Positions 6,466-29,613 of a stretch of DNA of 64,000 nt are shown one piece after another. Origin of the DNA: Candidatus Nomurabacteria bacterium (lineage in GTDB: Bacteria > Patescibacteriota > Saccharimonadia > Saccharimonadales > CAIOMD01); contig JACKGO010000008.1 in NCBI GenBank assembly GCA_020631975.1, positions 72,446 to 136,445 of the forward strand, given 5' to 3'. The position numbers and the translations under genes are program-made. A model generated the notes under the pieces. The model was not told the DNA's origin. It made no database searches and worked only from the letters and a program-made list of their open reading frames with translations. How positions within the stretch are numbered: position 1 is the first letter of the stretch; the number at the start of each line of letters is the position of its first letter.

Positions 6466-7134
6466 TTAATCCTCTACGCTGCCGTCTGCGCCATCTATTA
6501 ATAAATCGTGCACTTTTTTGGCTTGGTCTATGTGAAGACCGGGTATGTAGGCTTCTGATTTTGATTTAAGCACCCCTGTATCAATTGGTGCTCCTGTTGC
6601 GCTACCGGCAGTTTCTATACTAATACGTGCAAAACCAAATATACGGTCTAACACAGTACGTTCTATATTGACGTTTTGTATTTGCTCGTACGGCAAAGAT
6701 ACTTGTCGTTTATGAATCACACCAGATTCTATCTTTAAACCATCTTCGTTAATTTCGTAGGAAAAATTATTATACACAAATAAAGACGTAAGTAAGAGTA
6801 TTAAAAAGTAGCCCATAAGACCAAATACAAAAGGGTACGGCTGTAGTGCGGCGCCTACCAGCAACAACATAAACATTAGAAAAGTTTTACCAAAATAGCT
6901 TACAAAGAAGAAGAATATACCATCACCCTGTAAGTTCTGCTTGGGTATATATGCAACATGTTCACGCAACGCCTGTTTAGGGAGCTGACGCACGAGCTGC
7001 GGATGCTCTACGGGTGGTTCTTGAGCTCTAAAAACTGCTGAAGCGTGGCCATGAGTTGCTGCACCACACTGGGTGCAATAATTGGCACTCGCCGGCACCA
7101 AATTGCCACAGTTACTGCAATATATTTGATTCAT
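6466..7134 (-). CDS. zinc-ribbon plus membrane bPH (YdbS/YdbT-like) domain protein
   Basis: N-terminal CSNCG...CTQCG zinc ribbon, two TM helices, and a PH-like segment LKIESGVIHKRQVSLPYEQIQNVNIERTVLDRIFG. Confidence 0.7.
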   Translation of the reverse strand: MNQIYCSNCGNLVPASANYCTQCGAATHGHASAVFRAQEPPVEHPQLVRQLPKQALREHVAYIPKQNLQGDGIFFFFVSYFGKTFLMFMLLLVGAALQPYPFVFGLMGYFLILLLTSLFVYNNFSYEINEDGLKIESGVIHKRQVSLPYEQIQNVNIERTVLDRIFGFARISIETAGSATGAPIDTGVLKSKSEAYIPGLHIDQAKKVHDLLIDGADGSVED

Positions 7135-8835: not shown

Positions 8836-9918
8836 ATGTCGAACGAGATAGTTTCCCATAAAGACAACCGCGCAGAAGATATTACAGAGTTTTTCAACTC
8901 CCAAGAGCAACTCAAAGACTCTACACAGCGTCGTGATTACTTTGAGCACCTAGATGAAAACGAGTTCCTTGATCTTGTCCAACAAACTGCGGGACTTGTA
9001 CGAACTGGTAAGGTAGAAAACCAGCATTTTGATGGCGAAACGGTCGGGTTAATGACGCATGAAGTGCCCGACCAGCGGGAAAAAGAGCAACTTTTGCGCG
9101 ATACATGGACAGTAGCAAAAGAGTTTTTGAGTGATGCCGAAATTCCCGATGAAGATGCACTGGATTATGCTGCACTTACGGTTGCTGGTGGCTTACTGTA
9201 TGCACACCCATTTATGGATGGCAACGGTCGCACTAGTCGAACACTCTCGTACATGATTGCTCGTGGTAACGGTGATAAGCAGGAGTTGCACGACATACTT
9301 GCCGAAACTGGCGGTGGCCGTAACTGGCAAGTCGCACCAGTGCCTCTAGTGACGAGCGGTCAGTCGGTGTTTGAGGGCAAGCAACCGAAATCGATTGAAT
9401 GGGAAGATACATTTGTTGGCGAGGCAGAAGATGCGCTCGGTGGTGCTATTGCCAACAGTAGATATAAAGACGCGATTATTAGAAAGTTTATCGAAAAATA
9501 CGGTGAGTTAGCCGGAGAGCAGATTAAAGGAAGTTCGTTACAGCATGAAGATGGAACTTCTACGCTAAATGGTGAAGAGTTTATTGCCAAACTTGTTAAC
9601 GATCCAGAGGCGGGCATGACAAATGCGGATGAATTGATGAAGTTACATCGTGAAGCCCGCGCCGATTATGTTCACCGGTTTCTTAAAGCAATGCAGCTGA
9701 AAGAAAAGACACAGCTTCGTAGAATCCGCCAAGGAGATTTTGAGATAACCGACCAAGATGATGAATTCCAGAGAGGGCGTAAGCAAACAATCATTAAAGA
9801 GTTTGGAAAGCGTTCCGTTAATGGATTGTTGACACCTGCCGAGCAGCAACTCGTACAGCACCGTTCGTACTCACGAATACGTCATGGGAAAGAACGGGAC
9901 GAAGATATCGCCGCTTAA
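8836..9918 (+). CDS. Fic (filamentation induced by cAMP) domain protein
   Basis: Canonical Fic motif HPFMDGNGRTSR (HxFx[DE]GNGRxxR), 360 aa. Confidence 0.9.
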   Translation: MSNEIVSHKDNRAEDITEFFNSQEQLKDSTQRRDYFEHLDENEFLDLVQQTAGLVRTGKVENQHFDGETVGLMTHEVPDQREKEQLLRDTWTVAKEFLSDAEIPDEDALDYAALTVAGGLLYAHPFMDGNGRTSRTLSYMIARGNGDKQELHDILAETGGGRNWQVAPVPLVTSGQSVFEGKQPKSIEWEDTFVGEAEDALGGAIANSRYKDAIIRKFIEKYGELAGEQIKGSSLQHEDGTSTLNGEEFIAKLVNDPEAGMTNADELMKLHREARADYVHRFLKAMQLKEKTQLRRIRQGDFEITDQDDEFQRGRKQTIIKEFGKRSVNGLLTPAEQQLVQHRSYSRIRHGKERDEDIAA

Positions 9919-10355: not shown

Positions 10356-12023
10356 ATGGCTGAAAAATATTTCATTTATGCTCGCAAGAGTACCGATGTC
10401 GAGGACAAACAAGTTTTGTCTATCGAGGCACAGATAGCGGAGTTGAAAAAGTACGCCAAAGATAACCAACTAACAGTAGTAGACACTGTTATCGAAAAGA
10501 AGTCCGCCAAAGTGCCGGGACGCCTCAAGTTTGGCGCAATGCTTACTCGAATTGAAGCTGGTGAAGCCAGTGGAGTTATCTCGTGGCACCCTGACCGATT
10601 GGCAAGAAATAGTATAGACGGCGGACAGATTGTCTATCTGCTCGACCAAACGCACCTGCAATCGCTCAAGTTTCCGACATTTTGGTTTGAAAATACCAGT
10701 CAGGGTAAGTTTATGCTGTCTATTGCGTTTGGTCAGAGCAAATACTACATCGACAACCTCGCGGAGAATACGAAGCGTGGTTTGCGCCAGAAAGTACGGC
10801 GGGGCGAGTTTCCGGGGCTTGCGCCTGTTGGGTATATCAACGACGTGCGCATACATACGATTATTACTGACAAACGCCGCGCCCCAATCATCGCGCAAGC
10901 CTTTGAGTTGTATGCTCTCGGCGGTAGCCGCCTGCAAGATATTGCCAAATTTCTGGCAGATAAGGGTGTGAAAACGAGGAGCGGCAAGCACCTCACAAAA
11001 GATATGGTGAAGAAAATACTGACCAATCCTATCTACTACGGACATTTTAAGTATGCTGGCGAGGTACATGAGGGCAAACATACGCCGATTATTAGCAAGA
11101 AGCTGTTTGACTATGTACAGGCGACGCTAGAACGACGCGGACACAAGCGCAAGGGCGCGAACGCGCCCCAAGCCTTGTGCGGCTTGTTGACTTGCGGCGG
11201 GTGCAATATGGCGATTACTGCCGAGAAAAAGATAAAATACCAGAAAAACGGCAATGTACATGAGTATATTTACTACCGTTGTTCAAGGAAACATAAAACG
11301 ATTGCTTGCAAAGAGCCGACCATAACCGAACCCGACCTTGTCGCACAGCTTGCCGACATCTTGCAGGACTACGCCCTGCCGAAGTCGTGGGCGGTAGAGC
11401 TAGAAACAATGCTCGCAGAAGACGAGAAGAAAGCAGAACAAAGTTCTGCGGTGTTTATCACTGACACACAAAACAAGATACAGAGCTTGCAGAGCAAGCT
11501 CCAGCGACTACTCGACAGCTACCTAGACCAAGATATTGACCAACATGCGTACCGTGCCAAGCAAGCCGAGTTGATGAGCCAAAAGAAGTCGCTGGAAGAA
11601 CAAACCAGCAAGCTGACGCTTGCCGCCAATAGTTGGGTTGAACCTATGCGACAGTGGCTCAAAACGGCGATTTCTCTCTGTGAAATCGCAAAATGTGCCG
11701 AGCCAGCGGCAATGAAACAGGCTTTTAGCGAAATTGACGGATTGAACCTGTTTTTAACAACCAAAAAAGCGCGGCTCCAGCCGCGCCCCAGCTCCCACTT
11801 CCCCCCTGAAAACATCTGGCTGGCGCTCCGCGCAGCCAAAGAAAAAGCCGCCCATGCGGACGGCAATTTCCAAAAAAGTTTGCTTGTGGCGGAGAGAGTG
11901 GGATTCGAACCCACGGTACCGTTGCCGGCACGCATGTTTTCAAGACATGTTCCTTCAACCACTCGGACATCTCTCCATACAGGTAGTAAGTATACCAAAT
12001 GTGATGTTGTTGCTAAAGCATAA
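10356..12023 (+). CDS. large serine recombinase (resolvase domain, recombinase domain, zinc ribbon, coiled coil)
   Basis: N-terminal YARKSTD...SIEAQ and HPDRLARN. Zinc ribbon CGLLTCGGC...YYRCSRK. The last ~90 aa are encoded by arm B' and then the antisense of tRNA-Ser. Confidence 0.9.
   Translation: MAEKYFIYARKSTDVEDKQVLSIEAQIAELKKYAKDNQLTVVDTVIEKKSAKVPGRLKFGAMLTRIEAGEASGVISWHPDRLARNSIDGGQIVYLLDQTHLQSLKFPTFWFENTSQGKFMLSIAFGQSKYYIDNLAENTKRGLRQKVRRGEFPGLAPVGYINDVRIHTIITDKRRAPIIAQAFELYALGGSRLQDIAKFLADKGVKTRSGKHLTKDMVKKILTNPIYYGHFKYAGEVHEGKHTPIISKKLFDYVQATLERRGHKRKGANAPQALCGLLTCGGCNMAITAEKKIKYQKNGNVHEYIYYRCSRKHKTIACKEPTITEPDLVAQLADILQDYALPKSWAVELETMLAEDEKKAEQSSAVFITDTQNKIQSLQSKLQRLLDSYLDQDIDQHAYRAKQAELMSQKKSLEEQTSKLTLAANSWVEPMRQWLKTAISLCEIAKCAEPAAMKQAFSEIDGLNLFLTTKKARLQPRPSSHFPPENIWLALRAAKEKAAHADGNFQKSLLVAERVGFEPTVPLPARMFSRHVPSTTRTSLHTGSKYTKCDVVAKA
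11757..11891. repeat. arm B' (135 bp), inverted partner of 10069-10203
   Basis: Perfect reverse complement of arm B. Its last 5 nt are the CGCCA 3' end of tRNA-Ser(UGA). Lies inside the recombinase ORF. Confidence 0.9.
11887..11976 (-). tRNA. tRNA-Ser (anticodon TGA), copy 1, CCA encoded
   Basis: Hand-folded: acceptor GGAGAGA/TCTCTCC perfect, anticodon loop CTTGAAA, T-arm GTGGG-TTCGAAT-CCCAC. Confidence 0.85.
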
Positions 12024-12111
12024 TATGTGTATTTACTGACGATAGTTGTGGGCATTAGAGTAAGGCATAGTAAGCTCAAGGTTAGTAGCTCAATAGAAGG
12101 TTGCGTTTTAG

Positions 12112-12963
12112 TTAGAGATTTAGATTAAGCATGTCTTCACATAAAACAATTACCGCTTTTTTGTTTACGGGTTCTTTTGTATAGCCAAGCTGAGTACCAA
12201 CTTCTTGTGACATCCTATCGAATATATCAACCATACTAAGTGTTGCTTGCCATATTTCTTTTTTTTCACTAGTTGCGCTAATACTATTTATCTCATTTGC
12301 AAAATCAATATCCATAAGCTTTTCTAAATTTCTGCCGTGAACGCCATAGTTAATGCTCCAGTTGTTACTAAGACCCACATACCATGAAAGCATTCTCTCG
12401 AATGATTCATATCGTATAGCGCTTAATAGCATATACCTAGCAAAGGCCGTTTCTCCACGACGCAAGCTTTTTGCTATATAGGGTAAATCCCAATAAAAGC
12501 CATCTACAGTTTCATAAAATTCCCTCTCAGTTGGTTTGGTAACTATGTATTTTTTTAAAGTAGGGTGTACTATTTTGGATTCTATATTATCTTTATCTAT
12601 AATTATCTTGTATCCGTTATTATAGTCTGTGCTATCAAAGTGCTGATTATCAATAATTTGAAAGTCAACCCTAGGAAAGTCTTTAAAAACAACCAGCCTG
12701 GTAAGACTACCCGGAGCAAAGCCAGCATTTCTTGGCATGAGTGGCCACTTTACTAATGTTTGTCCAAAATAGTCTAACCAGTCATCGCTGTTAAATAAAT
12801 GTAAATCTTTTACGATTAATTCTACGTCATAATCTGATAGCTTATCTGGTTTTGAGCTTTTACTGACTCGAGAGCTAGTCAATATCATTGCTCTTACATT
12901 ATCGTTTTGAGTGCCCCAGCGTTCTAACTTTGAAAGTACATCTTGTTCATTGGTTTCAAACAT
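12112..12963 (-). CDS. ant(6): aminoglycoside 6-nucleotidyltransferase, ANT(6)/AadK-type (streptomycin adenylyltransferase family)
   Basis: 283 aa, collinear from memory with B. subtilis AadK. Examples: SDYDVELIVKD...DDWLDYFG versus QDYDISYFVTD...DQWLEIFG, and PTEREF...YIAKSLRRGE versus PTAREF...YVVKGLARNE. Confidence 0.8.
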   Translation of the reverse strand: MFETNEQDVLSKLERWGTQNDNVRAMILTSSRVSKSSKPDKLSDYDVELIVKDLHLFNSDDWLDYFGQTLVKWPLMPRNAGFAPGSLTRLVVFKDFPRVDFQIIDNQHFDSTDYNNGYKIIIDKDNIESKIVHPTLKKYIVTKPTEREFYETVDGFYWDLPYIAKSLRRGETAFARYMLLSAIRYESFERMLSWYVGLSNNWSINYGVHGRNLEKLMDIDFANEINSISATSEKKEIWQATLSMVDIFDRMSQEVGTQLGYTKEPVNKKAVIVLCEDMLNLNL

Positions 12964-13148
12964 GATTCTAGTATAATTTATAACTTACAATTATAGATAT
13001 TTTTGTTTTTAGAATAAGAAAGAGAAAGAGGCATGAACGCACGATGCTAGACTGGCTTTTCTATTCCAACATCTAACTAAAGTTTTGTTCAAATCAGATA
13101 GCTTTGACAGAATTCTAAACACTCTGCTCGGGTTTTAACCTAATTATT

Positions 13149-13206
13149 ACAGCAATTTAAAAACCCCGCAAATACGGGGATCTTAAATTGGCGGAGGAGG
13201 AGGGAT
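13149..13206. repeat. 58-bp direct repeat (tRNA-Ser 3' end plus hairpin flank), partner at 15002-15059
   Basis: acagcaatttaaaaaccccgcaaat...attggcggaggaggagggat. About 5 mismatches between the copies by eye. Confidence 0.8.
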
Positions 13207-13278
13207 TCGAACCCTCGGTACCGTTGCCGGCACGACGGTTTTCAAGACCGTTTCCTTCAACCACTCGGACACCTCTCC
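13189..13278 (-). tRNA. tRNA-Ser (anticodon TGA), copy 2, chimeric acceptor stem
   Basis: 5' strand GGAGAGG but 3' strand CTCCTCC, identical to the 3' end of tRNA-Ser(GCT). This gives an A5:C68 mismatch and a G6:U67 wobble. Confidence 0.75.
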
Positions 13279-13332
13279 GTACAACAAGATAGTATAGCAA
13301 AAAACTACACAAACACTAAAAAGCGTAAAATC

Positions 13333-14262
13333 TCACCCCAAATGCGACTTTTCCGTAACTTTCGCTAGTTCCAGTGTAGCAGTCTCCGGATTATCTTTAT
13401 AATATTGCTTGAATTGAGCTGGGGTCATCATGTCAGGTAACCCCATATGCCATCTACGGTTAATGTAGTGTTTGGTAAATCTGTTGGCTCGTTCCTGTAG
13501 TTCTGCGATGTCTTTTTGTTGGTATTCGCCCCTTGGGAAGCATTCGCTTCTGAGAGATTTGTTGAAGTTTTCAATATGGCTTTGTTCGTTCTTCTTGTAC
13601 GGACGGCTATAACGATGCTCACTGACAGCCTCAACAGCCTCTCGGAAGGTTGTTTGGAACTCGGAGCCGTTATCCGACTGGTGCAATACTGTACGCCCGT
13701 AGAAGGCGTTGTGGATGGCAAAAGCCCCGGCTCCGGTGTTCATCTCTAGGTTAGTACCAATTACTACACTTGGTTCCTTCGTGAATATGTCTATGGCTGT
13801 ATATGCATAGACACCGCCACCCAGGTCTACTGTGTCGTGTTCGATTACTTCTCTTGGGGCAGAAGCTGCCACGAGAGCTTTATGTTTCTTGTAGCGCCGT
13901 ACGCCAACAGCCGCCTTGGTGAAACGTCTGTGAAGATAACGGTAGATAGTGGATAAAGCCAGGCTAATGCCATGGTTTTCTTTGAGTTCTTTACGTATCT
14001 TAGCGCCACACCAGCCAAACTCATTTCTAATGTCTACTATCTTTTGGATGGTGGTTTCTGGTATTTGAGCTTTGGGGCGACGGTGCTTGGCGGTGGTCTT
14101 GCGCTTCAGAAACAACCGGATGCCGATCTGTTTGATCTTTCTTAGCCAACGGTAGACAGTAGCCCTATCGCGGGATACTACCTGAGCTATTTGGTTGATG
14201 GTAGATTCAGCTTGGTACATATTCCATGCTGTTTCGTAGATTGTTAGTGTACGCTTAGTCAT
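13333..14262 (-). mobile_element. IS481-family-like DDE transposase gene (309 aa); IS ends not identified
   Basis: N-terminal HTH (ATVYRWLRK). rve-type core with D (HDTVDLG), D (HQSDNGSEF) and E (SHIENFNKSLRSE). Fills the ~1.05-kb gap next to the tRNA 5' end. Confidence 0.75.
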
Positions 14263-16691: not shown

Positions 16692-16722
16692 GTAAAAATC
16701 CCCCTTTTGTAAAAGGGGGATT
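16692..16722 (-). terminator. terminator of the pilin operon
   Basis: aatccccctttt / aaaagggggatt perfect stem, with a T-run on the minus strand. Confidence 0.6.
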
Positions 16723-16746: not shown

Positions 16747-17166
16747 CTAGGATGCTGTGTTGGCAACGTTGCCAAGTACAAACTTCACAATAACCTGCGC
16801 AAGCGCCACGATGATAAGACCTACTATTGCGTACAATATGGTGTTCTTTGCAGAAGTAACGCTACCGGCATCACCACCGCTGGTAATGTAGCGGAAACCG
16901 CCATAGATAATCATGATGACAGAAACAACACCAACAACCCAAGAAAAGATATTAATGATGAGGTTTACCGTATCATTAACACCTTCTGATGCTTCGTCAT
17001 TGATATTTGTACAGTCGCCAGCAGTGTTAGGTGCTTGCAAGTTTGCGCCACCACACAGGCCACTTTGAATATCACTTTGAGCAATTGCTATAGCAGGAAC
17101 GGTCAATGGAGCGAGCATACCTACAGCTGTGAATGCCGCTATTATTAATGTTTTTAGTCTGTTCAT
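16747..17166 (-). CDS. VirB2/TrbC-like T4SS pilin paralog 1 (139 aa)
   Basis: Signal peptide, variable Cys-containing region, conserved core IINIFSWVVGVVSVIMIIYGGFRYITSGGDAGSVTSAKNTILYAIVGLII (TM-loop-TM). Confidence 0.75.
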   Translation of the reverse strand: MNRLKTLIIAAFTAVGMLAPLTVPAIAIAQSDIQSGLCGGANLQAPNTAGDCTNINDEASEGVNDTVNLIINIFSWVVGVVSVIMIIYGGFRYITSGGDAGSVTSAKNTILYAIVGLIIVALAQVIVKFVLGNVANTAS

Positions 17167-17250
17167 GTAAATTCCTTATTTAACGTTAGCTTATGATACT
17201 TTTTTACCATATATTAATGTTTTTGTAAATATATAATCGTTCGTTCACTA

Positions 17251-17457
17251 TTTAGGTTACATTACCAAGCACAAAAAGCACAAGTACTTGCGCGAGTGCG
17301 GCGATTACCAAACCAACCAGTGCATAGACAATGGTATTTTTGGCGCTTGTTACTTTACCAGCATCACCCCCGCTAGTGATATACCGAAAACCACCAAATA
17401 TGACCATAATGACCGATACCACACCAACGATCCATGAAAAGATGTTGATGATGTCTT
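17251..17457. repeat. ~207-bp direct repeat (3' halves of pilin genes 2 and 3), partner at 17645-17851
   Basis: Near-identical by eye, with about 4 substitutions. Offset 394 bp. Confidence 0.85.
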
Positions 17458-17623
17458 CTACCAGAGTGTTAACTTTTGCTGGTGCGCTGCCCGCACATTG
17501 GTCACCGGTACATGTAGCTTCGACACCTTTTTTTATCTGTGCATAGCTCGTAGTAGTTGTAAGTACAGGGCCTACGAAAGCAAATGTTGCGAGTGCTGCT
17601 AGGCCTATTAAAAACGCTTTCAT
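17252..17623 (-). CDS. VirB2/TrbC-like T4SS pilin paralog 2 (123 aa)
   Basis: Same architecture. C-terminal 68 aa identical to paralog 3. Confidence 0.75.
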   Translation of the reverse strand: MKAFLIGLAALATFAFVGPVLTTTTSYAQIKKGVEATCTGDQCAGSAPAKVNTLVEDIINIFSWIVGVVSVIMVIFGGFRYITSGGDAGKVTSAKNTIVYALVGLVIAALAQVLVLFVLGNVT

Positions 17624-17644
17624 TTTTTTACTCCTTTATTTATC

Positions 17645-17851
17645 TTTAGGTTACATTACCAAGCACAAAAAGCACAAGTACTTGCGCGAGTGCCGCGATT
17701 ACCAAACCAACTAGTGCATAGACAATGGTATTTTTGGCACTGGTTACTTTACCAGCATCACCCCCGCTAGTGATATACCGAAAACCACCAAATATGACCA
17801 TAATGACCGATACCACACCAACGATCCATGAAAAGATGTTGATGATGTCTT
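17645..17851. repeat. ~207-bp direct repeat, partner of 17251-17457
   Basis: See partner entry. Confidence 0.85.
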
Positions 17852-18044
17852 GCACGAGGTTGTTTGCTTTTGCCTTAACACCTATTTTATTGCCCTCGCT
17901 GTCGTACTGCTGGCAGTTACCATCCGGACACGTAGCATTGATGCCATCTGTTACTGGGCTAGCGTATATGGGTAAACTCAATGCTGGCAGGGCAGCGGCA
18001 CTTAGTCCAAACACTGCTACGATTACTAAAAAGAGTTTTTTCAT
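17646..18044 (-). CDS. VirB2/TrbC-like T4SS pilin paralog 3 (132 aa)
   Basis: Same architecture. Variable region carries CPDGNC. Confidence 0.75.
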   Translation of the reverse strand: MKKLFLVIVAVFGLSAAALPALSLPIYASPVTDGINATCPDGNCQQYDSEGNKIGVKAKANNLVQDIINIFSWIVGVVSVIMVIFGGFRYITSGGDAGKVTSAKNTIVYALVGLVIAALAQVLVLFVLGNVT

Positions 18045-18057
18045 TTTATATCCTTTA

Positions 18058-18459
18058 TTAGTTTAATAACTTTGCTATTGCAAATAATATCAACCGATTT
18101 GCTAATACAACAACCACTAACCCAACAAGTGAGTACAATATAGTCTGCCGCCCAGTTGCTGCCTTTTGCGGTTCACCAGCGCTGGTAATGTACTTAAAAC
18201 CACCAAATATAACCATAAAAACTGCAAGCGCACCTGCTACAAAAGATAATATATTAATTATTCTCTTAATAAGAATTAGTATTGCGTTATCGCCCGGGTC
18301 GGCGTCACTACCTTTATCGTAGCCTTTACATAGTGAACTGGTTGGGTTGTTTTTGCACACTTCGGTTAAATCTTCTGTTGCGCTCGCAGCCATCGCTAAA
18401 GGACTTATGGTCAAAAAAAGTAGTGCTGTGGCGAATAAAGATGTCAAAAACATTTTCAT
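18058..18459 (-). CDS. VirB2/TrbC-like T4SS pilin paralog 4 (133 aa)
   Basis: Signal peptide, CKNNPTSSLC, core INILSFVAGALAVFMVIFGGFKYITSAGEPQKAATGRQTILYSLVGLVV. Confidence 0.7.
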   Translation of the reverse strand: MKMFLTSLFATALLFLTISPLAMAASATEDLTEVCKNNPTSSLCKGYDKGSDADPGDNAILILIKRIINILSFVAGALAVFMVIFGGFKYITSAGEPQKAATGRQTILYSLVGLVVVVLANRLILFAIAKLLN

Positions 18460-18468
18460 ATGTATGTG

Positions 18469-18747
18469 CTACGTCACCCTATTAAATATAAACAGAACAA
18501 TGACTTGGGCAAAAAATATTACAACCAACCCCGCTACGGCATATATAATCGCACGGCGAGCTTGGGCAACCTTTTCTGAATTACCCTGCGAAATAATCAG
18601 TTGTATACCAGAATAGACAACCATAATGACGGCAACTGCTCCAAAAATAGCGAGAACGTAATTTAAAATCGTGCCAAAACTATTTGTGTTTGTTTTTGGT
18701 AAATAATCAGAACTAATTATTGCTGAAAATGTGTATAAAATATTCAT
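18469..18747 (-). CDS. VirB2/TrbC-like T4SS pilin paralog 5 (92 aa, short N-terminus)
   Basis: Core LNYVLAIFGAVAVIMVVYSGIQLIISQGNSEKVAQARRAIIYAVAGLVV. No obvious long variable region. Confidence 0.65.
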   Translation of the reverse strand: MNILYTFSAIISSDYLPKTNTNSFGTILNYVLAIFGAVAVIMVVYSGIQLIISQGNSEKVAQARRAIIYAVAGLVVIFFAQVIVLFIFNRVT

Positions 18748-18749
18748 AT

Positions 18750-19259
18750 TTAGGCGAGTCCTCCGGCAATAAAGCCAACTATTTGCGACGCGATAACTGC
18801 AATTACCATACCTACCAAGGCATTAAACAGCGTTGTTCTGGCAGCGGCAATTTTTTGCGGTTCACCATCGCTCGTAAGTAATTTAAAACCGCCCCAAATA
18901 ATCATCACTACAGCAATAACGCCTGCTACATATAGAAGGATATCAAATATCCCCATAAGTATTAGAATAATGACTGTTCCACCTAGGCCATCTGTTTTAA
19001 TTTCACATTGCCCATTTACTTTTTGCCCCGGCAAGTACTGATACCAGGTTGGAAGAGGCAGACCTCCGCTACCTGGCCGGCATTTATTACCTTCTGCCTG
19101 TATGTTTGCTTCTGTTCCATCTGCTTGACGGGGGTTTTCTGGATTATCTGATTGCGCAACAACATGCACCGTAGACGGTACTATACCTAGCACAGCAATA
19201 CCCATACTTGGTACGAGTAATAGTGCTAGGCTTGTGAGAACTTTGGCAACGAGCTGCAT
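18750..19259 (-). CDS. VirB2/TrbC-like T4SS pilin paralog 6 (169 aa from Met at 19259)
   Basis: Start chosen at MQLVAKV (signal-like), overlapping the upstream stop (TAATG). Core FDILLYVAGVIAVVMIIWGGFKLLTSDGEPQKIAAARTTLFNALVGMVI. Confidence 0.7.
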   Translation of the reverse strand: MQLVAKVLTSLALLLVPSMGIAVLGIVPSTVHVVAQSDNPENPRQADGTEANIQAEGNKCRPGSGGLPLPTWYQYLPGQKVNGQCEIKTDGLGGTVIILILMGIFDILLYVAGVIAVVMIIWGGFKLLTSDGEPQKIAAARTTLFNALVGMVIAVIASQIVGFIAGGLA

Positions 19260-19633
19260 TAAAACACGCCCCCCGGTATTAACCACTGTATAAAGGCGTA
19301 CAAAAAGAAGTAGGCCACTAAACCAAATACAACGTTCCATATTTTTTCTTTAGCCGCTTGTACGTTTTGTGCGTTGTCTCTTGCTGTCATGTACTGTATG
19401 CCTGCCCACGCAATCATGACAGAACCACCAGCTAATATTGTTACAGAAAGCACATTAATAAAAAATTCTATCCATTTAATTATTGGGTTATCTTTAATGT
19501 CAGATGCAGTAGTTTGACCATTAGTTGGTGAAGGCTGTTTTAAGCCCTGCGCATAGGCAGCTTGTGTTGCAGGCATGGTAGTACCGCATAAACTTGCCGC
19601 TGCAATTGCTAAAATAAATAATGTTTTTTTCAT
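19259..19633 (-). CDS. VirB2/TrbC-like T4SS pilin paralog 7 (124 aa)
   Basis: Signal peptide, core FINVLSVTILAGGSVMIAWAGIQYMTARDNAQNVQAAKEKIWNVVFGLV. Confidence 0.65.
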   Translation of the reverse strand: MKKTLFILAIAAASLCGTTMPATQAAYAQGLKQPSPTNGQTTASDIKDNPIIKWIEFFINVLSVTILAGGSVMIAWAGIQYMTARDNAQNVQAAKEKIWNVVFGLVAYFFLYAFIQWLIPGGVF

Positions 19634-19826
19634 TTTTAATCAATATACTTTACCCACTTATTAAACCATAAAATTAGCTTGTAATACACAGTCTACTTTT
19701 ATATATAGTGCTACGCATTGTAATTCACTAGCTTTATAAATCTATTACAATTAATGCATGGTGTCATTTTACCTGTAGAGACTTTTGCTCAAAATGCAAT
19801 AAAATGGTAAATTTTATATAGTAGTT

Positions 19827-22658
19827 ATGCTATTAAAACAAACCCAGAAGACTCTTAAACTACTTTTACCATTGTTGGTAATTTTTGCTTTTGCTATGAC
19901 TCATTTTTCTACTGTTGCATTTGCGGCAGGTGATTATGTAGATGTAGACCGTGACAACACCTTATTTTATTACAATGCTGACAAAAATGTTTTTCTCGCC
20001 GTCAGAGATGGTAATATAGTTATCTTTGGCAAAGAGGCTGGTAATGATAATGGATGGAAGCAAAAGGTCGACCTTTACGGCAAGGGTACTATAGACTGTT
20101 CTTCACGTATACAGATAGATAAAGCTATCAATCCAAATATTTTTAACCCTCTCGTAAATAGAGCTGTGCTCTACGAAGCTGGAGGAAACAACTGTGCGGA
20201 CGAAAACTATCATCAAGGTGCAATTGATCTACAGAATGAAGATGAATCAGTTACAAAGGCAGCCCAAAATATTAACTGGGGTAACGAACCGCTCGGCTGC
20301 CCTAAATTCGGTAATATACCAAATAACGCTAATAAAAAAGATCTCAATTATAACTGCCCAAACGGTGGTGCGGTTATAAAAGGCGTATATGACAAAAATG
20401 AAAAAATTGATACACCACGACTAGCAAGTGCTAACGCAAGTGCTTGTGGTGATGTAGCAGGTGCTTTTGGGTGGTTAATATGCGAACCTGCCGAGAAAAT
20501 TGGAGATTTTACCATGTGGTTCGAAAAGCAACTGTATACTTTGTTGCACATAAATGAACTGCCCTTGGCTGCTGATGGTGGTGTTTACCAAGCTTGGGCA
20601 AGTATTCGAACTGTGGCAACAACAGTATTGGTGCTCGTGGCGCTTGTTGCAATTGCCTCCCAAATATTTAATTTTGATTTTATTAGTGCCTATACTATTA
20701 AAAAAATAATACCCAAAATAGTTATCGCTACCATTTTGATTTTCACATCGTATTATCTTGCAGCAATGGGTATTGCGTTTGTGAATGCGCTTGGTGATGG
20801 CGTAAATGCTCTTATTTTGGCGCCTTTTCCTGATTTAATGGACGCTTATAATCAAAACGAAACGATATCTTTTGTACTTAGCAATATTTCTGGTATTGGT
20901 GGTGGAGAAGCTGGGGTTGCGGGTGGCATAATTGTAGGCGCAGGTATAGCAGCAATAGGTGGGGCTGGATTGTTCGGGTTGCTCATACCAATTATACTTG
21001 TAATAGGCGCGGTGGTTGTCGCGTTTATTACACTTGTACTAAGAAAAGTATTTATATTAGCACTCGTACTCATTATGCCCCTTGCAATTGTGGCATGGAT
21101 ACTGCCTGGTACGCAAAAATGGTTTGATAGCTGGTGGAAGCTCTTTTCTAAACTACTCCTTATGTACCCATTAGTCATCGGCTTGCTCGCAGTGGGTAAG
21201 GTAGCTGCATATTTAATAGCTACCGGCACAGAATCAGTTACAGCTGCTGCACTACCACAAGTATGGAATGTTTTGGCTGTGAATGGGCAGGCATCTATAG
21301 TTATTCTAATGGTGCTGATAGCTTATTTTGGCCCCTACTATTTTATTCCAAGTATGTTTAAAACAGCAGGTGGTGTGTTTGGAAAAATCACCAGTGGCAT
21401 GCAAAGCTTTGGAAGTAAATACGCACGTAAAGGCGGCGAAGCGTCAAGTAAGTGGGTTGGTGATAGAGCAGCCTCGAGATATAGGCCAGGTGCAAAGGGA
21501 GCACGAAAGTTCATTGGAAACTCTGCCATTAGATTGGGTACTGGAAAATTACTACCCACCCAATCAGGTGCACGCGCAATAGCTAGCCGCGGTGTAAACT
21601 TTGAAAAAGAAAGATTGCAGCAAGCTGAGTTTCTGCATGGCCAGGCCGAAAGATCTATGGATCACAACACATATTTAGACTATCTTGAAAAAACAGGATC
21701 AAGCAGAAGCATATATGACAGACAAGCTGCTCACAATATACTCGTTAGGCAAAAGGGCTATGATCAGCTAGAAAGATTGCGTGATAGAAACGGAGAAGAA
21801 GAGTGGAATAGGATGATAAGTGTAGGCGATACATACTCAGCTATCAAATCAACAAATAGGAGTGTACTAACATCTGATACTGCACTGGCCATAGAAGACG
21901 GTAGTATCTTTGATGACACTGAAGAAAAGAAGCAATTATTAAATAAGTACTATAATGCGGCACGTTCTCAAGGTGTTACTAACCTAAGCCAAGATGAGTT
22001 CGTAACTGACCTAAAGACTAGGGCAGGAACTAAAGACGCTGTCAGAGAAGCGAGAAAGGTTGACAAGGCAAAAATAATTCAGGAGATGAGTGGTGACGAG
22101 ATTATAGCTTCACATGATAGCATTTACTTTAGTCAAGACTTTGATAGTGATGGAAAGCCAAAACCAGATAAAATTCATAACGTTCAGTTTATGTCTGATG
22201 CATCAAAAGAGAGTATAGCTATCAATCAGAACCTAGTTGGTCGCGCAACTGCTACAGCAAAGCGAGAGCTTGGCCTTTCTGGCGGAGGCGGTGGTTCTGG
22301 TGGTGGTGGTAACTCAGGTCCTAGTTCTGGCGGAGGCGGTGGTTCTGGTGGTGGTGGTAACTCAGGTCCTAGTTCTGGCGGAGGCGGTGGTTCAGGCCAA
22401 TCGGCACCAGCAGGACCCGGATATGTAGCACCAATGCCACCGCCAACACCGGGAACAGCCTACACAGGACTAACGCCACCAGCAGCACCAGCAAAGGTAG
22501 TCCTAGACGAGACTTCAATCAGAGAATTGGCCAATAATGTAAGAGAGTCAGGCGGCAAAGGTTTGTCCAAAGAAGATAGAAGAGATATATCGCAAGAAAC
22601 CGCTGAAAGAATAGAAAACATCGAAAGAACCAGGAACGACGATGGACCCCCGGTATAG
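19827..22658 (+). CDS. VirB6/TrbL-like polytopic T4SS membrane protein with large N-terminal exodomain and G/S-rich C-terminal tail (943 aa)
   Basis: Signal/TM, ~230-aa Cys-containing soluble region, then at least 6 hydrophobic helices (residues ~260-520), then a long hydrophilic tail with GGGGSGGGGNSGPSS repeats. Confidence 0.65.
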   Translation: MLLKQTQKTLKLLLPLLVIFAFAMTHFSTVAFAAGDYVDVDRDNTLFYYNADKNVFLAVRDGNIVIFGKEAGNDNGWKQKVDLYGKGTIDCSSRIQIDKAINPNIFNPLVNRAVLYEAGGNNCADENYHQGAIDLQNEDESVTKAAQNINWGNEPLGCPKFGNIPNNANKKDLNYNCPNGGAVIKGVYDKNEKIDTPRLASANASACGDVAGAFGWLICEPAEKIGDFTMWFEKQLYTLLHINELPLAADGGVYQAWASIRTVATTVLVLVALVAIASQIFNFDFISAYTIKKIIPKIVIATILIFTSYYLAAMGIAFVNALGDGVNALILAPFPDLMDAYNQNETISFVLSNISGIGGGEAGVAGGIIVGAGIAAIGGAGLFGLLIPIILVIGAVVVAFITLVLRKVFILALVLIMPLAIVAWILPGTQKWFDSWWKLFSKLLLMYPLVIGLLAVGKVAAYLIATGTESVTAAALPQVWNVLAVNGQASIVILMVLIAYFGPYYFIPSMFKTAGGVFGKITSGMQSFGSKYARKGGEASSKWVGDRAASRYRPGAKGARKFIGNSAIRLGTGKLLPTQSGARAIASRGVNFEKERLQQAEFLHGQAERSMDHNTYLDYLEKTGSSRSIYDRQAAHNILVRQKGYDQLERLRDRNGEEEWNRMISVGDTYSAIKSTNRSVLTSDTALAIEDGSIFDDTEEKKQLLNKYYNAARSQGVTNLSQDEFVTDLKTRAGTKDAVREARKVDKAKIIQEMSGDEIIASHDSIYFSQDFDSDGKPKPDKIHNVQFMSDASKESIAINQNLVGRATATAKRELGLSGGGGGSGGGGNSGPSSGGGGGSGGGGNSGPSSGGGGGSGQSAPAGPGYVAPMPPPTPGTAYTGLTPPAAPAKVVLDETSIRELANNVRESGGKGLSKEDRRDISQETAERIENIERTRNDDGPPV
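22281..22394 (+). repeat. 48-bp tandem repeat, about 2.4 copies, encoding GGGGGSGGGGNSGPSS
   Basis: ggcggaggcggtggttctggtggtggtggtaactcaggtcctagttct repeated at 22281, 22329 and (partial) 22377. Confidence 0.9.
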
Positions 22659-22667
22659 GATAGATGT

Positions 22668-23789
22668 ATGGCGACATATAAAGTAATACAAGACGTAGAA
22701 GCAGAAGATAAGATACTAGGGCCCCTAAGCCTAAAGCAGCTTATCTTTGCCGCTATTGCGGCAGGTTCTATATTTATTGCTTTTAGGATTGTGGTTGCAA
22801 CTGGGGTTATATACACTGCTATTCCGTTTTTGCCATTTATATTAGTTTTTGGCGTGTTGGCGGCACCTCTTGGGCGTGACCAGCCAACAGAAATGTGGTT
22901 GGCGGCACAAATACGTTTTTACACCAAGCCGAGGGTCCGTATATGGGACCAAAGTGGTATTAAAAACTTAGTGAACATTACTGCACCTATAAGAATAGAA
23001 AAAATTTACACCGATGGCTTAAACCAAAATCAAGTGCGTAGTCGGCTAAAAGCACTTGCTTCTACCCTAGATAGCCGTGGCTGGGCGGTAAAGAACGTAG
23101 ATGTAAATATGTATACCACGCCTGGCTACGCCCAATTTAATTCTGATAGAATTATAGACCCGGTTAGCTTGCCAATAACTGTCAGCGACATAGATGTGCG
23201 TGCTTCTGACGATATTTTAGATGTAGCAAACAATGATACCGCCCAGCATTTTGATAACCTTATGCAAACGGCAGCACAGACCCATCATCAAGAATTAATG
23301 GCAAAAATACACAGCGCTGCAGCGCAGCAACCAAGTGCAGCCTTGCCTCGTAACGATGCAGATGATGACGCCCTAAACTATACGCCACCAGCAGCTACAC
23401 CGCCTTCATATGACACACCACCGCCCCAACAACAAGCTACCATACCTACAGATCAGCCCATACATGAAATTACCCAAGAAGATGAACAAAAAATTATCGA
23501 ACACGCTAAACTCGAACGCCAACGCTCTGAAGTACAATATGCATCGCATCATAAAGTTGTCCTAACACCTCAGCAGCAAGCAGATTTAGCAAAACAGCAA
23601 GCACTTAAAGACCAAGAACAAGCCAAAGAGGCAGCAGAAAGCCAGCCCTCCCAGCAGACACACCTTTCAAAGACTGATACAATAGAACTTGCTAATGCTA
23701 ACCTGAAGGTATCTACAATTGCTGGTCTTGCCAAGCATAAAACACAAGAAAAGCAGGACCCAACAGAAGTTGTAGTGAAGCTTCATTAA
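22668..23789 (+). CDS. PrgI/VirB3-like T4SS membrane protein with long Q/P-rich C-terminal extension (373 aa)
   Basis: N-terminus YKVIQDVEAEDKILGPLSLKQLIFAAIAAG followed by two TM helices, as in PrgI-family proteins of monoderm T4SSs. Confidence 0.6.
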   Translation: MATYKVIQDVEAEDKILGPLSLKQLIFAAIAAGSIFIAFRIVVATGVIYTAIPFLPFILVFGVLAAPLGRDQPTEMWLAAQIRFYTKPRVRIWDQSGIKNLVNITAPIRIEKIYTDGLNQNQVRSRLKALASTLDSRGWAVKNVDVNMYTTPGYAQFNSDRIIDPVSLPITVSDIDVRASDDILDVANNDTAQHFDNLMQTAAQTHHQELMAKIHSAAAQQPSAALPRNDADDDALNYTPPAATPPSYDTPPPQQQATIPTDQPIHEITQEDEQKIIEHAKLERQRSEVQYASHHKVVLTPQQQADLAKQQALKDQEQAKEAAESQPSQQTHLSKTDTIELANANLKVSTIAGLAKHKTQEKQDPTEVVVKLH

Positions 23790-23819: not shown

Positions 23820-24677
23820 ATGTACCCAGATCAACAAAATCAACAACCAGTTGCACAAAATCAGTATGGACCGCCGGCTGCCGGGATGCCTCAACCTGGC
23901 GCACCCGTTGTAGGGCAGATGTCGGCATCTTCCAACGAAGCCGCCACTGCGCCCAAAAGCAACCCAAATAGTACCCAAAACGTGCTACAAATTGCAGAAA
24001 TAAGAGACGGCGTGGCCATTATGAATGATGGGTCGTTTAGGTCGGTACTAATGTGCCGGAGCATTAATTTTGACCTTATGAGCCCAGAAGAACGCGAAGG
24101 CGTAGAATACGCCTACCAAAACTTTTTAAATTCGCTGTATTTTGAAGTTCAAATACTCGTTAGGTCAAGTAAAGTAGACATTCGGCCATACCTAGAAAAA
24201 TTAGATAAAATACGCTCCGAGCACGACAACATGCTCCTAGGTGTTTTGATGGAAGATTACATAAACTACATAGCAGCGCTCGCCGACCAAACCAATATAA
24301 TGGATAAAAAGTTTTACATTGCTATTCCGTTTTACAGCAGCCTAGACACCCGAAAGGTTGCCCAAGCCAGCAAAAGTGTACTTACAACCATATTTGGCCA
24401 CAAAGAACAGGTAGTAACGATAGACGAAGCCACCTTAGAGGCTGCCAAAACAGAACTGAAAAACCGAGCCCAAACGGTGCTTTCTGGGCTCATGCAATGT
24501 GGTGTACAAGGTGCTGCACTAGATACCCAAGAACTAATTGAGCTTTATTATGACGCCTACAACCCAGATACTGCCACCCGCCAGCCCCTAAAAAACTTTG
24601 CAGATTTAACTGCGCCGGTGGTAACTAAAGGGCAAGGTAATGCTGCCCAGCCAAACCTAGATAGGGAGATGCAATAA
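23820..24677 (+). CDS. T4SS-associated protein resembling a VirB4 N-terminal domain; Q/P-rich N-terminus (285 aa)
   Basis: IAEIRDGVAIMNDGSFRSVLMCRSINFDLMSPEEREGVEYAYQNFLNSLYFEVQILV pattern. Stop abuts the virB4 start. Confidence 0.4.
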   Translation: MYPDQQNQQPVAQNQYGPPAAGMPQPGAPVVGQMSASSNEAATAPKSNPNSTQNVLQIAEIRDGVAIMNDGSFRSVLMCRSINFDLMSPEEREGVEYAYQNFLNSLYFEVQILVRSSKVDIRPYLEKLDKIRSEHDNMLLGVLMEDYINYIAALADQTNIMDKKFYIAIPFYSSLDTRKVAQASKSVLTTIFGHKEQVVTIDEATLEAAKTELKNRAQTVLSGLMQCGVQGAALDTQELIELYYDAYNPDTATRQPLKNFADLTAPVVTKGQGNAAQPNLDREMQ

Positions 24678-26555
24678 ATGGGTCTTTTTAAGAAAAAAAA
24701 GCAGCAGCTTGACCCTGTGGCGCTTGCCGAACAACAACGTTTGCAAGAACAACAAGAAGTTCAGGCGGCATTCCAAAAAGGTGTTACTGCACTCCGTGAC
24801 TTTATTGCACCAAGTAGTATTGAATTTAGTAGTAGTTATTTTCAGATTGGTACCCGTTTTGCACGGACTTACTACGTTTTTGGCTACCCCAGGCAAATAC
24901 ACACAGGCTGGATAAGTAGCTTTGTAAATATAGACGAAGTAGTCGATTTATCGTTATTTATTTACCCGGTAGAAAGCCAAGTTGTACTAGAAAACCTACG
25001 TAAAAAAGTATCACAGCTAGAGGCTGGCCTACAAATAGATGCCGAAAAAGGTAGGGTACGCGACCCAGGTAAACAAGCCGCCATACTAGACGCAGAAGAA
25101 CTGCGCGATAAACTACAGGTTGGTGAAGAAAAGTTCTTTCGGTTTGGTATGTATTTTACCGTGTATGGCAACTCGCTAGATGAACTCGATTTTGTAAGCC
25201 ACAAGATAGAATCTATGCTTGGCCAACAGTTGGTGTTTAGTAAACCTGCCAGCGCCCAGCAAGAACAAGGTCTAAACAGCACAATTCCACAATTTGTAGA
25301 TCAGTTGCAAATTAGAAGAAATATGAACACCGGCGCTATTGGCACCAGTTTTCCGTTTACCAGTGCCGATTTAAGTGACGATCACGGTATTTTATATGGC
25401 ATAAATATGCACAACAGTGGCTTGGTGATATTTGACCGCTTTAGCCTAGAAAATGGCAATAGCGTTGTATTTGCTAAATCTGGTGCAGGGAAAAGCTTTG
25501 CCGTAAAGCTAGAGGCTTTGCGTAGCCTTATGTTGGGTGTAGAAATATTTATTGTAGACCCAGAAAACGAATATGAACGTATGAGTGAAGCAGTTGGTGG
25601 GGCATACGTAAAACTCAGCCTAAATTCGCCAACCCGTATTAACCCGTTTGATTTACCACTAGTCGTAGATACAGAAGAAGCAGATAATGCCTTGCGCAGT
25701 AACCTTATAACCTTACATGGACTGTTGCGTTTGATGATGGGTGGTGCACAAGCCCAAATGGCCGCCAGCCAAGGTTCGGTGGTTGCACCAGCGCTTAACC
25801 CAACAGAAGAAGCAGATTTAGACGCCGCGCTATTAGAAACCTACGCTAAAGCGGGTATCACCAACGACCCATTAACCCATAACAGTACCCCGCCAACCAT
25901 CCACGATTTATACGACACCTTGCTGCATATGGGGGGCACAGGTCCACAACTTGCCCAGCGACTACGCAAATATACCACTGGTACGTTTTCTGGTATTTTT
26001 AGCCAGCAAAGTAACGTAGATATTAACAACCCGTTTGTCGTGTTTAATATTCGTGACCTAGAAGATGAACTACGCCCCGTGGCAATGTATATTGTGCTTA
26101 ATTACATTTGGAATAAAACAAAGTCAGATCAAAAAAGGCGAATGCTAGTAATAGACGAAGCCTGGCAACTGATGAAATACGAAGATAGCGCCAGTTTTAT
26201 GTTTAGCTTAGCTAAAAGAGCCCGTAAGTATAATTTAGGAATCACCACTATTTCGCAGGATGTAGAAGACTTTATGAGTTCACGCCTTGGGCGGGCCATT
26301 GTGGCTAATGCATCTATGCAAATTTTACTAAAACAATCTGTAAGTGCCGTAGACGTATTGGCAGATGTCTTTAAGCTCACATCAGAAGAAAAAAAGCGCC
26401 TCAGCCAGTTCCCGGTTGGGCAAGGACTCTTCTTTGCTGGGCAAAGTCACGTGCATATACAAATTGCTGCCAGCCCATCAGAAACAAGCCTTATAACAAC
26501 CAACCCAGAACAAATAAAACTACTCGAAGACCAAGGCCAAATACCCGTCAGATAA
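24678..26555 (+). CDS. virB4: VirB4/TrsE-family T4SS ATPase (625 aa)
   Basis: Walker A FAKSGAGKSF, Walker B MLVIDEAWQL. N-terminal YFQIGTRFARTYYVFGYPRQIHTGWIS typical of VirB4/TrsE. Confidence 0.9.
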   Translation: MGLFKKKKQQLDPVALAEQQRLQEQQEVQAAFQKGVTALRDFIAPSSIEFSSSYFQIGTRFARTYYVFGYPRQIHTGWISSFVNIDEVVDLSLFIYPVESQVVLENLRKKVSQLEAGLQIDAEKGRVRDPGKQAAILDAEELRDKLQVGEEKFFRFGMYFTVYGNSLDELDFVSHKIESMLGQQLVFSKPASAQQEQGLNSTIPQFVDQLQIRRNMNTGAIGTSFPFTSADLSDDHGILYGINMHNSGLVIFDRFSLENGNSVVFAKSGAGKSFAVKLEALRSLMLGVEIFIVDPENEYERMSEAVGGAYVKLSLNSPTRINPFDLPLVVDTEEADNALRSNLITLHGLLRLMMGGAQAQMAASQGSVVAPALNPTEEADLDAALLETYAKAGITNDPLTHNSTPPTIHDLYDTLLHMGGTGPQLAQRLRKYTTGTFSGIFSQQSNVDINNPFVVFNIRDLEDELRPVAMYIVLNYIWNKTKSDQKRRMLVIDEAWQLMKYEDSASFMFSLAKRARKYNLGITTISQDVEDFMSSRLGRAIVANASMQILLKQSVSAVDVLADVFKLTSEEKKRLSQFPVGQGLFFAGQSHVHIQIAASPSETSLITTNPEQIKLLEDQGQIPVR

Positions 26556-29573: not shown

Positions 29574-29613
29574 TATCCTATGAACAACTACATCAAATTA
29601 TTAAATAGAAATT

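Follow-up and report, generated by a model that had tools for sequence, protein, structure and literature searches.

A stretch of 64,000 nucleotides of the contig JACKGO010000008.1 (assembly GCA_020631975.1, positions 72,446 to 136,445), which originates from a Candidatus Nomurabacteria bacterium of the order Saccharimonadales and is called the window below, carries seven consecutive small open reading frames (ORFs) on the minus strand between positions 16747 and 19633. These ORFs were named from W7 (promoter-proximal) to W1 (distal). In our opinion, expressed with good though not full confidence, the locus is an array of VirB2-like pilin genes belonging to a type IV secretion system (T4SS) that is encoded near the chromosomal origin of an uncultured member of Saccharimonadales and is of the monoderm type (MPF-FATA-related), its products being specialised paralogues with W1 as the likeliest major one. 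A previous description made from the letters alone (the sequence-only reading) had reported seven minus-strand genes of 92–169 amino acids, tightly packed or overlapping and closed by a single terminator. All these ORFs are indeed present, the intergenic distances from the promoter-proximal end onward are −1, 2, 9, 13, 22 and 85 nucleotides (nt), and one terminator-like hairpin was found. The overlap of 1 nt is shared by the stop codon of W7 and the start ATG of the 169-residue version of W6; the first in-frame ATG of W6 is located at 19340 and gives a protein of 196 residues.

The paralogy of the seven proteins was confirmed by leave-one-out comparisons with hidden Markov models (HMMs). Each protein scored 46–137 bits against the profile of the other six, and the best of 200 shuffles per protein reached no more than 9.7 bits; for W7, the values were 46 bits and at most 9.5 bits, respectively, so that the mutual homology is far beyond chance. 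The similarity to T4SS pilins, on which the earlier identification depended, was also found. The gathering cut-off of the Pfam family PF18895 (T4SS_pilin), equal to 26.6 bits, was passed by six proteins with 41.4–49.4 bits (W1 48.9, W2 47.8, W3 46.0, W4 42.2, W5 49.4 and W6 41.4), and W7 remained slightly under it with 24.9 bits. All seven matched the full 80-residue NCBIfam model NF045849 with 27.5–32.7 bits (E from 4e-8 to 2e-6). Close homologues in a large protein database carry PF18895, and many of them PF04956 (TrbC/VirB2) as well, under the source names 'pilin' or 'Type IV secretion system pilin'; one of these entries, P0001, is 99% identical to W1 and has already been named 'pilin' by NCBI. 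A tblastn search with W2 against 72,556 plasmids gave nothing meaningful, so there is no close plasmid-borne relative in that collection.

A C-terminal core of about 70 residues, consisting of two hydrophobic helices and a short loop, can be aligned across all seven proteins. Hydropathy profiles showed a signal-like N-terminal segment and two long hydrophobic segments in six of them and the two core segments only in W5. An AlphaFold2 model of W1, built on 49 aligned sequences (mean predicted local distance difference test score, pLDDT, 77.5), contains a signal helix at residues 3–22, a short helix at 34–41 and a hairpin of helices 56–95 and 100–137 connected by a four-residue loop, with pLDDT of more than 90 in the hairpin. 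Hydropathy and the model thus agree on the two-helix transmembrane (TM) core that had been proposed. The signal peptide attributed before to all members can be retained for six of them, and W5, with its 92 residues, has no segment resembling one. In the six signal-bearing proteins, an ectodomain of 26–64 residues precedes the hairpin, and the probable signal-peptidase cleavage sites (A-x-A or Y-A-Q) were inferred by eye. Pairs of Cys residues, said to occur in most variable segments, were found as the four quoted motifs in W1–W4, and an additional pair is present in W6 (C60/C85), but W5 has none and the mature part of W7 has none either. Taken together, these features correspond to a putative VirB2-like architecture, namely a leader-like segment (in six of seven), two helices and a short charged loop.

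The array is divergent from a cluster encoding VirB6-like, PrgI, TrsD and VirB4 proteins and cell-wall hydrolases, with recF, dnaN and dnaA beyond. The VirB6-like gene is directly divergent and the VirB4-like ATPase gene starts 5 kb from the array, the genes of the PrgI and TrsD types lying in between. A search of the 943-residue divergent protein with hmmscan, both as a whole and by its TM region, gave no TrbL match; it may be called VirB6-like on the basis of its position, its polytopic character and the PF19590 (TrbL_3) match on record for the same-length product of the 99.8% identical contig L081. The TrsD-like neighbour weakly matches the VirB4 model of Mycoplasma integrative and conjugative elements (ICEs). 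The VirB4 protein is 81–88% identical to homologues from metagenome-assembled genomes (MAGs) of Saccharibacteria and Saccharimonadales, and its closest relatives all come from such MAGs. Co-location with virB4- and virB6-like genes, which had been named as a check of the pilin identification, was observed here and in every related Saccharimonadales locus with sufficient flank.

Comparison with related loci provided the main information on the constancy of the array. When an HMM of the seven proteins was run on 80 related loci, 52 of them gave matches, always on the strand opposite virB4. Six genes were present in 37 loci, seven in 5 and nine in 1, and smaller arrays were mostly truncated by contig ends. 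Positional orthology was estimated across the 37 six-gene arrays from the best match of each protein in every other genome. The frequency with which this match occupied the same position was 98% and 99.9% at positions 1 and 2, 85% at position 3 and 93% at position 6, compared with 54% and 50% at positions 4 and 5; the last three positions (4–6) form a closer subfamily. Proteins of the W1 type showed the highest cross-genome score (116 bits), their core being 65% identical across species; the orthologues of W5 have a median length of 100 residues. Wherever else seven genes were present, and in the array of nine, the additional genes are located at the distal end and have W1 as their best match. 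The positional orthology across the 37 six-gene arrays suggests that the array is an ancient ordered set of six paralogues and not a rapidly shuffling cassette.

The same comparison changes the picture of the N-terminal regions, which had been described as hypervariable. They cannot be aligned between paralogues, and to this extent the description was right, but between orthologues or strains they show no hypervariability. At positions 2, 4, 5 and 6, the Cys pair has been retained in 33–37 of 38 orthologues (33 of 38 for W6 and 37 of 38 for W4), and the identity between species is 25–35% in N-regions versus 39–65% in cores. Strains with 99.4–99.8% identity differ mostly by synonymous changes; three amino-acid changes were found, all in N-regions, the small number of substitutions giving this comparison low power.

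A promoter-like element was noticed in the 85-nt spacer before W1. In related arrays, the spacer before the last gene is also long, with a median of 74 nt versus at most 6 nt elsewhere. The motif emerged from comparing the orthologous spacers of the window and of loci L002–L078. The form TGnTAnAA is present in 32 of 48 such spacers (background 0.048 per 130 nt) and TTGnnn-N13-16-TGnTAnAA, of the extended −10 type, in 29 of 48 (background 0.0075 per 130 nt), about 30 nt upstream of a ribosome-binding site of the AAGAAAGG type. A generic scan for sigma-70 promoters passed over the W1 spacer. We infer from this conservation that the element would act as a promoter of the last gene. No mention of a promoter-like motif before the last pilin gene was found in the portions of the array literature available to us.

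The seventh gene is explained by W2 and W3. The last 206 nt of these genes are 98% identical, with four differences, all synonymous, and the similarity is lost abruptly upstream, where none remains; accordingly, the cores are 100% identical at the protein level and the N-halves are unrelated. Judging by this pattern, W2 is a lineage-specific recent duplicate of the position-5 gene, whose core was probably kept near-identical to that of W3 by recent duplication or gene conversion. All seven genes recur in metagenomic contigs whose identity with the array is 99.4–99.8%. In the strain contig L082, the four differing sites of W2 have the bases of W3, which suggests ongoing gene conversion, an assembly artefact across the repeat being the alternative. 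In other contigs of the same species (L083, L084 and L086–L089), the sequence breaks or seems recombined inside the 206-nt repeat. Contig L083 has a truncated gene for 83 residues at the W2/W3 repeat, and in L084 (GCA_040773605.1, contig JAXGVU010000111.1) the N-half of W3 is joined directly to the spacer of W1, giving a six-gene variant apparently without W2. These cases may be either real polymorphism (in L084, a deletion) or an artefact or collapse of assembly across the repeat.

Based on the VirB2/PrgF paradigm, the following mode of action may be supposed. The array proteins would insert into the membrane, where the leader would be cleaved by signal peptidase; VirB4 would then power the extraction of the pilins, which would polymerise, with the VirB6-like protein as platform, to form a tube or a short pilus. 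The lumen would be lined by the charged loop between the helices, F-R/K-Y-I-T-S-G-G-D/E, and the N-terminal segments, probably disulfide-bonded, would be situated outside, facing the host bacterium. Proteins of the W1 type are the likeliest major subunit and a candidate for the shaft because a conserved promoter-like element of its own precedes their gene and their sequence is the best conserved. The proximal paralogues, translationally coupled and having no obvious promoters, are more likely to be low-abundance specialised subunits (initiation, tip or adaptor). In the distal subfamily, duplication and replacement of the N-terminal part could tune contact with the host.

A number of observations weigh against the identification as a pilin array or against parts of it. 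The second relevant family, PF04956, is related, but membership of the array proteins falls short of its cut-off of 27.9 bits for all seven, the best score being 25.1 bits (W2, E 2e-5) and the others 15–24 bits. The scores with NF045849 are also under its equivalog cut-off of 40 bits. Alignment by hhalign of a 49-sequence profile with PrgF of the plasmid pCF10 was marginal (probability 22%, E 9e-4, 59 columns), with both helices and the loop in register. Foldseek comparison of the W1 model with PDB gave no match with E ≤0.001, the top ones being unrelated helical hairpins, and this result is uninformative, the helical hairpin being too simple to discriminate between proteins; the sequences in PDB, searched with a profile, gave nothing relevant either, as is expected for such a fold. 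Neither a coupling protein nor a relaxase was found among the larger ORFs of the window that were scanned. The topology of the W5-type protein without a signal peptide and its incorporation are uncertain. The division into major and minor subunits is a proposal drawn from promoter-like motifs and conservation, and we know of no filament seen for any Patescibacterial T4SS.

The sequence-only reading had left two options, a heteropolymeric filament or interchangeable variable tips. The comparative data lean towards specialised co-assembled subunits over interchangeable variable ones and prove neither. A more detailed form of the first option, which we put forward tentatively and regard as possible rather than probable, is a heteromeric filament of six ancient VirB2 paralogues, fixed in position and with distinct structural roles. 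The W1-type protein, with a promoter of its own, would form its shaft, the coupled proximal ones, including the leaderless core-only member, would serve as initiator, adaptor or tip in place of the missing VirB5, and the distal subfamily would gain diversity through duplication and gene conversion of the cores, by which contact with the host would be tuned. To our knowledge, all conjugative or T4SS pili characterised so far are homopolymers of a single VirB2, some of them tipped by VirB5.

The second option, in which the paralogues are interchangeable major pilins varying the filament surface for different host strains or for evasion of defence, as proposed for Bartonella and Anaplasma, seems unlikely to us. 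It would agree with the absence of alignable N-segments between paralogues and their lower conservation between species (25–35% versus 39–65%), with the recurrent duplication in the distal subfamily of positions 4–6, which led to seven- and nine-gene arrays with additional copies of the W1, W2 or W3 type, with the common core and different N-halves of W2 and W3, and with the location of all three strain amino-acid differences in N-regions; adaptation to different host strains is suggested in PMC12102498. On the other hand, orthology is stable at positions 1, 2, 3 and 6 between species with VirB4 proteins only 81–88% identical, and the array is one co-oriented unit in which we found neither invertible elements nor silent cassettes nor switch-like repeats; a search of the array for inverted repeats as a phase-variation switch was negative. 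Rapid turnover, strain hypervariability or a switch, by which antigenic variation would be recognised, did not appear in these sequences, the few substitutions making this a comparison of low power. Strain variants differ mostly synonymously, the Cys pairs are conserved, and PMC12857230 and PMC10633639 describe the array as essential in Southlakia.

Still less probable is the absence of any extended pilus, the products being small subunits of a T4SS channel or of a short wall-spanning conduit whose N-domains act at the junction of the epibiont and the host. The distance between cells in epibiosis is small, and two strongly hydrophobic helices are present in all seven proteins. A preprint on PrgF (bioRxiv 10.64898/2025.12.18.695078) suggests a short or transient structure, and we know of no observation of a pilus in a monoderm T4SS. 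This explanation differs from the pilin array preferred by us in filament length only; the homology of the family to pilus-forming proteins and the six conserved paralogues, which seem more than the lining of a simple channel needs, argue for the latter. Finally, it is very improbable that the proteins are small effectors that are secreted by the Sec route and reach the host. N-termini resembling signal peptides are present in six of the seven, and a preprint on the TM7x transcriptome (bioRxiv 10.1101/2022.03.25.485537) labels the members of the TM7x array 'putative effector genes' and reports three of them as up-regulated in stable symbiosis, but two long hydrophobic helices would hold each protein in the membrane, the profile matches are to pilin families and one member has no signal peptide.

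The features of the array and the adjacent T4SS genes are listed in Table 1.

Table 1. Pilin array, its regulatory elements and the neighbouring T4SS genes (positions in the window)
Feature	Position	Strand	Characteristics
W7	19259-19633	-	Array position 1, promoter-proximal; 124 aa; most divergent member
W6	18750-19259	-	Array position 2; 169 aa from the second ATG; longest N-terminal ectodomain; Cys60/Cys85
W5	18469-18747	-	Array position 3; 92 aa; core only, two TM helices, no Cys
W4	18058-18459	-	Array position 4; 133 aa; CKNNPTSSLC
W3	17646-18044	-	Array position 5, copy a; 132 aa; CPDGNC
W2	17252-17623	-	Array position 5, copy b, putative lineage-specific extra gene; 123 aa; CTGDQC
W1	16747-17166	-	Array position 6, distal; 139 aa; Cys motif CGGANLQAPNTAGDC; most conserved member
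Promoter-like element	17201-17229	-	In the 85-nt spacer before W1; TTTACA (17229-17224), 17-nt spacer, TGG+TAAAAA (17209-17201)
Terminator-like element	16700-16718	-	G+C-rich hairpin CCCCTTTTACAAAAGGGGG and T-run; closes the array 3' of W1
Divergent intergenic region	19634-19826	.	Between the array and the virB6-like gene; presumed promoters of both operons; weak consensus matches only
VirB6/TrbL-like protein	19827-22658	+	943 aa; extended polytopic membrane protein; multiple hydrophobic helices in the translation
PrgI-family (VirB3-like) protein	22668-23789	+	373 aa; PF12666, 38.3 bits
TrsD/TraC-like protein	23820-24677	+	285 aa; resembles the N-terminal region of VirB4; sub-threshold NCBIfam TrsD, CD1110; PF26593 TraC-like on record
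VirB4-like ATPase	24678-26555	+	625 aa; PF19044, 99.5 bits; AAA_10, 46.4 bits
M23 peptidase (978 aa) and GDSL esterase/phage-lysozyme2 protein (604 aa)	26637-31428	+	Cell-wall-active; VirB1-like role

The VirB4 function appears to be split between two neighbouring genes, the TrsD/TraC-like one, which corresponds to the N-part of VirB4 of the CD1110 type, being followed directly by that of the P-loop ATPase.

Some other features of the window deserve mention. A gene of the ANT(6)/streptomycin-adenylyltransferase family (12112–12963, minus strand; PF04439, 198 bits) is only about 28–29% identical to ANT(6)-Ia/Str from plasmids of Enterococcus and Staphylococcus. Two divergent tRNA-Ser(tga) genes (11887–11976 and 13189–13278) enclose it, with a large serine recombinase (10356–12023), whose ORF overlaps the first of these tRNA genes, on one side and an IS481-like transposase (13333–14262) on the other; the GC content is 0.50 at 10–12 kb versus about 0.41 nearby. 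The region 10356–14262 may represent a mobile element that has integrated into a Saccharibacterial genome and carries a gene for an aminoglycoside-modifying enzyme. A Fic/DOC-family protein of 360 residues (8836–9918) is encoded just upstream of the serine recombinase, and a protein with a zinc ribbon and a bacterial PH domain (6466–7134) is encoded near tRNA-Ser(cga) and tRNA-Arg(gcg). The region 40246–63418 contains a cluster of genes for glycosyltransferases, ABC transporters, FkbM methyltransferases and UDP-glucose dehydrogenase, including a 941-residue GDSL-domain protein (41353–44178), and probably makes a surface polysaccharide. Its GC content falls to 0.29–0.35 at 50–60 kb, and this part may be a horizontally acquired or variable glycan locus.

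Multi-gene pilin arrays are a published and catalogued feature, and the locus described here is a further example of what is already known. McLean et al. (2018/2020, bioRxiv 10.1101/258137) reported in Saccharibacteria a syntenic array of 4–6 small VirB2-related proteins with signal peptides beside VirB4 and VirB6. Wang et al. (2023, PMC10633639) found the T4SS pilin array to be essential in Ca. Southlakia epibionticum and noted the contrast with Gram-positive T4SSs, and a 2025 review (PMC12857230) counts the six Southlakia pilins, divergent in sequence, among the highlights of this field. In a survey of 3,035 Patescibacterial genomes by means of PF04956 and PF18895, Quinonero-Coronel et al. 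(2025, PMC12102498) obtained 441 arrays of 2–11 pilin genes. The arrays came from 383 assemblies, were commonest in Microgenomatia and Saccharimonadia and had a within-array identity of 25% on average and 54% at maximum; proximity to dnaA was noted. Some Gram-negative systems (Bartonella, Anaplasma) carry several virB2 paralogues according to the same work, which does not agree with the previous assertion that such systems encode one VirB2. The companion assertion that monoderm T4SSs normally have no VirB2 pilins is outdated: VirB2-like pilins and their arrays are typical of Patescibacterial T4SSs, and ter Beek et al. (2025, bioRxiv 10.64898/2025.12.18.695078) reported that PrgF of pCF10 is VirB2-like and required for conjugation, and that a VirB2-like PrgF is present in the majority of Gram-positive conjugative plasmids.

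Saccharibacteria are obligate epibionts, and the T4SS with its pilin array is one of the few machines that they have been shown to need for growth on the host. The locus adds no new kind of system. Its pattern, that is, the fixed order of six paralogues, the promoter-like element before the last gene, the leaderless member and the concerted evolution of duplicated cores, narrows the hypotheses for the cultivable models Southlakia ML1 and TM7x and makes the W1-type orthologue the first candidate for the shaft subunit.

Among known systems, the Patescibacterial arrays of PMC12102498 are the closest. The locus falls within their definition (2–11 tandem pilin genes, at most one non-pilin interruption and VirB4 in the genome), having tandem genes of the PF18895/PF04956 type beside virB4, prgI, trsD and virB6 near dnaA. 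The identity of the other members to W1 is 25–54%, compared with the reported mean of 25% and maximum of 54%. No categorical difference was found; the 100% identity of W2 and W3 exceeds the reported maximum when the core alone is considered. The cluster of Southlakia ML1, situated within the T4SS locus SEML1_0006-0019 (PMC10633639, PMC12857230), is similar in its six divergent, structurally similar VirB2-like pilins, six being also the modal array size in the relatives studied here, and in belonging to a Gram-positive-type T4SS cluster without a recognisable relaxase or coupling protein. It represents another genus, the locus of the window has seven genes as a probable result of the position-5 duplication, and essentiality is a result for Southlakia only.

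PrgF of pCF10, like the array proteins, is a small hairpin of two TM helices around a short charged loop, and its gene likewise lies shortly upstream of virB6, prgI and virB4 in a monoderm T4SS (bioRxiv 10.64898/2025.12.18.695078). It differs in being single-copy, in its length of 75 residues, in having neither a signal peptide nor an ectodomain and in giving no match to PF18895; only W5 has a PrgF-like architecture. The Mycoplasma ICE protein Mbov_0395/MMCAP2_0565, on which NF045849 is named, is similar in that all seven array proteins match its full model, with sub-cut-off scores; the family name points to a single copy. Bartonella and Anaplasma also have tandemly amplified and diverged virB2 genes in a host-associated bacterium, as stated in PMC12102498; these are diderm, effector-translocating systems in which the amplification is read as antigenic variation, in contrast to the positional orthology and mostly synonymous strain changes observed here.

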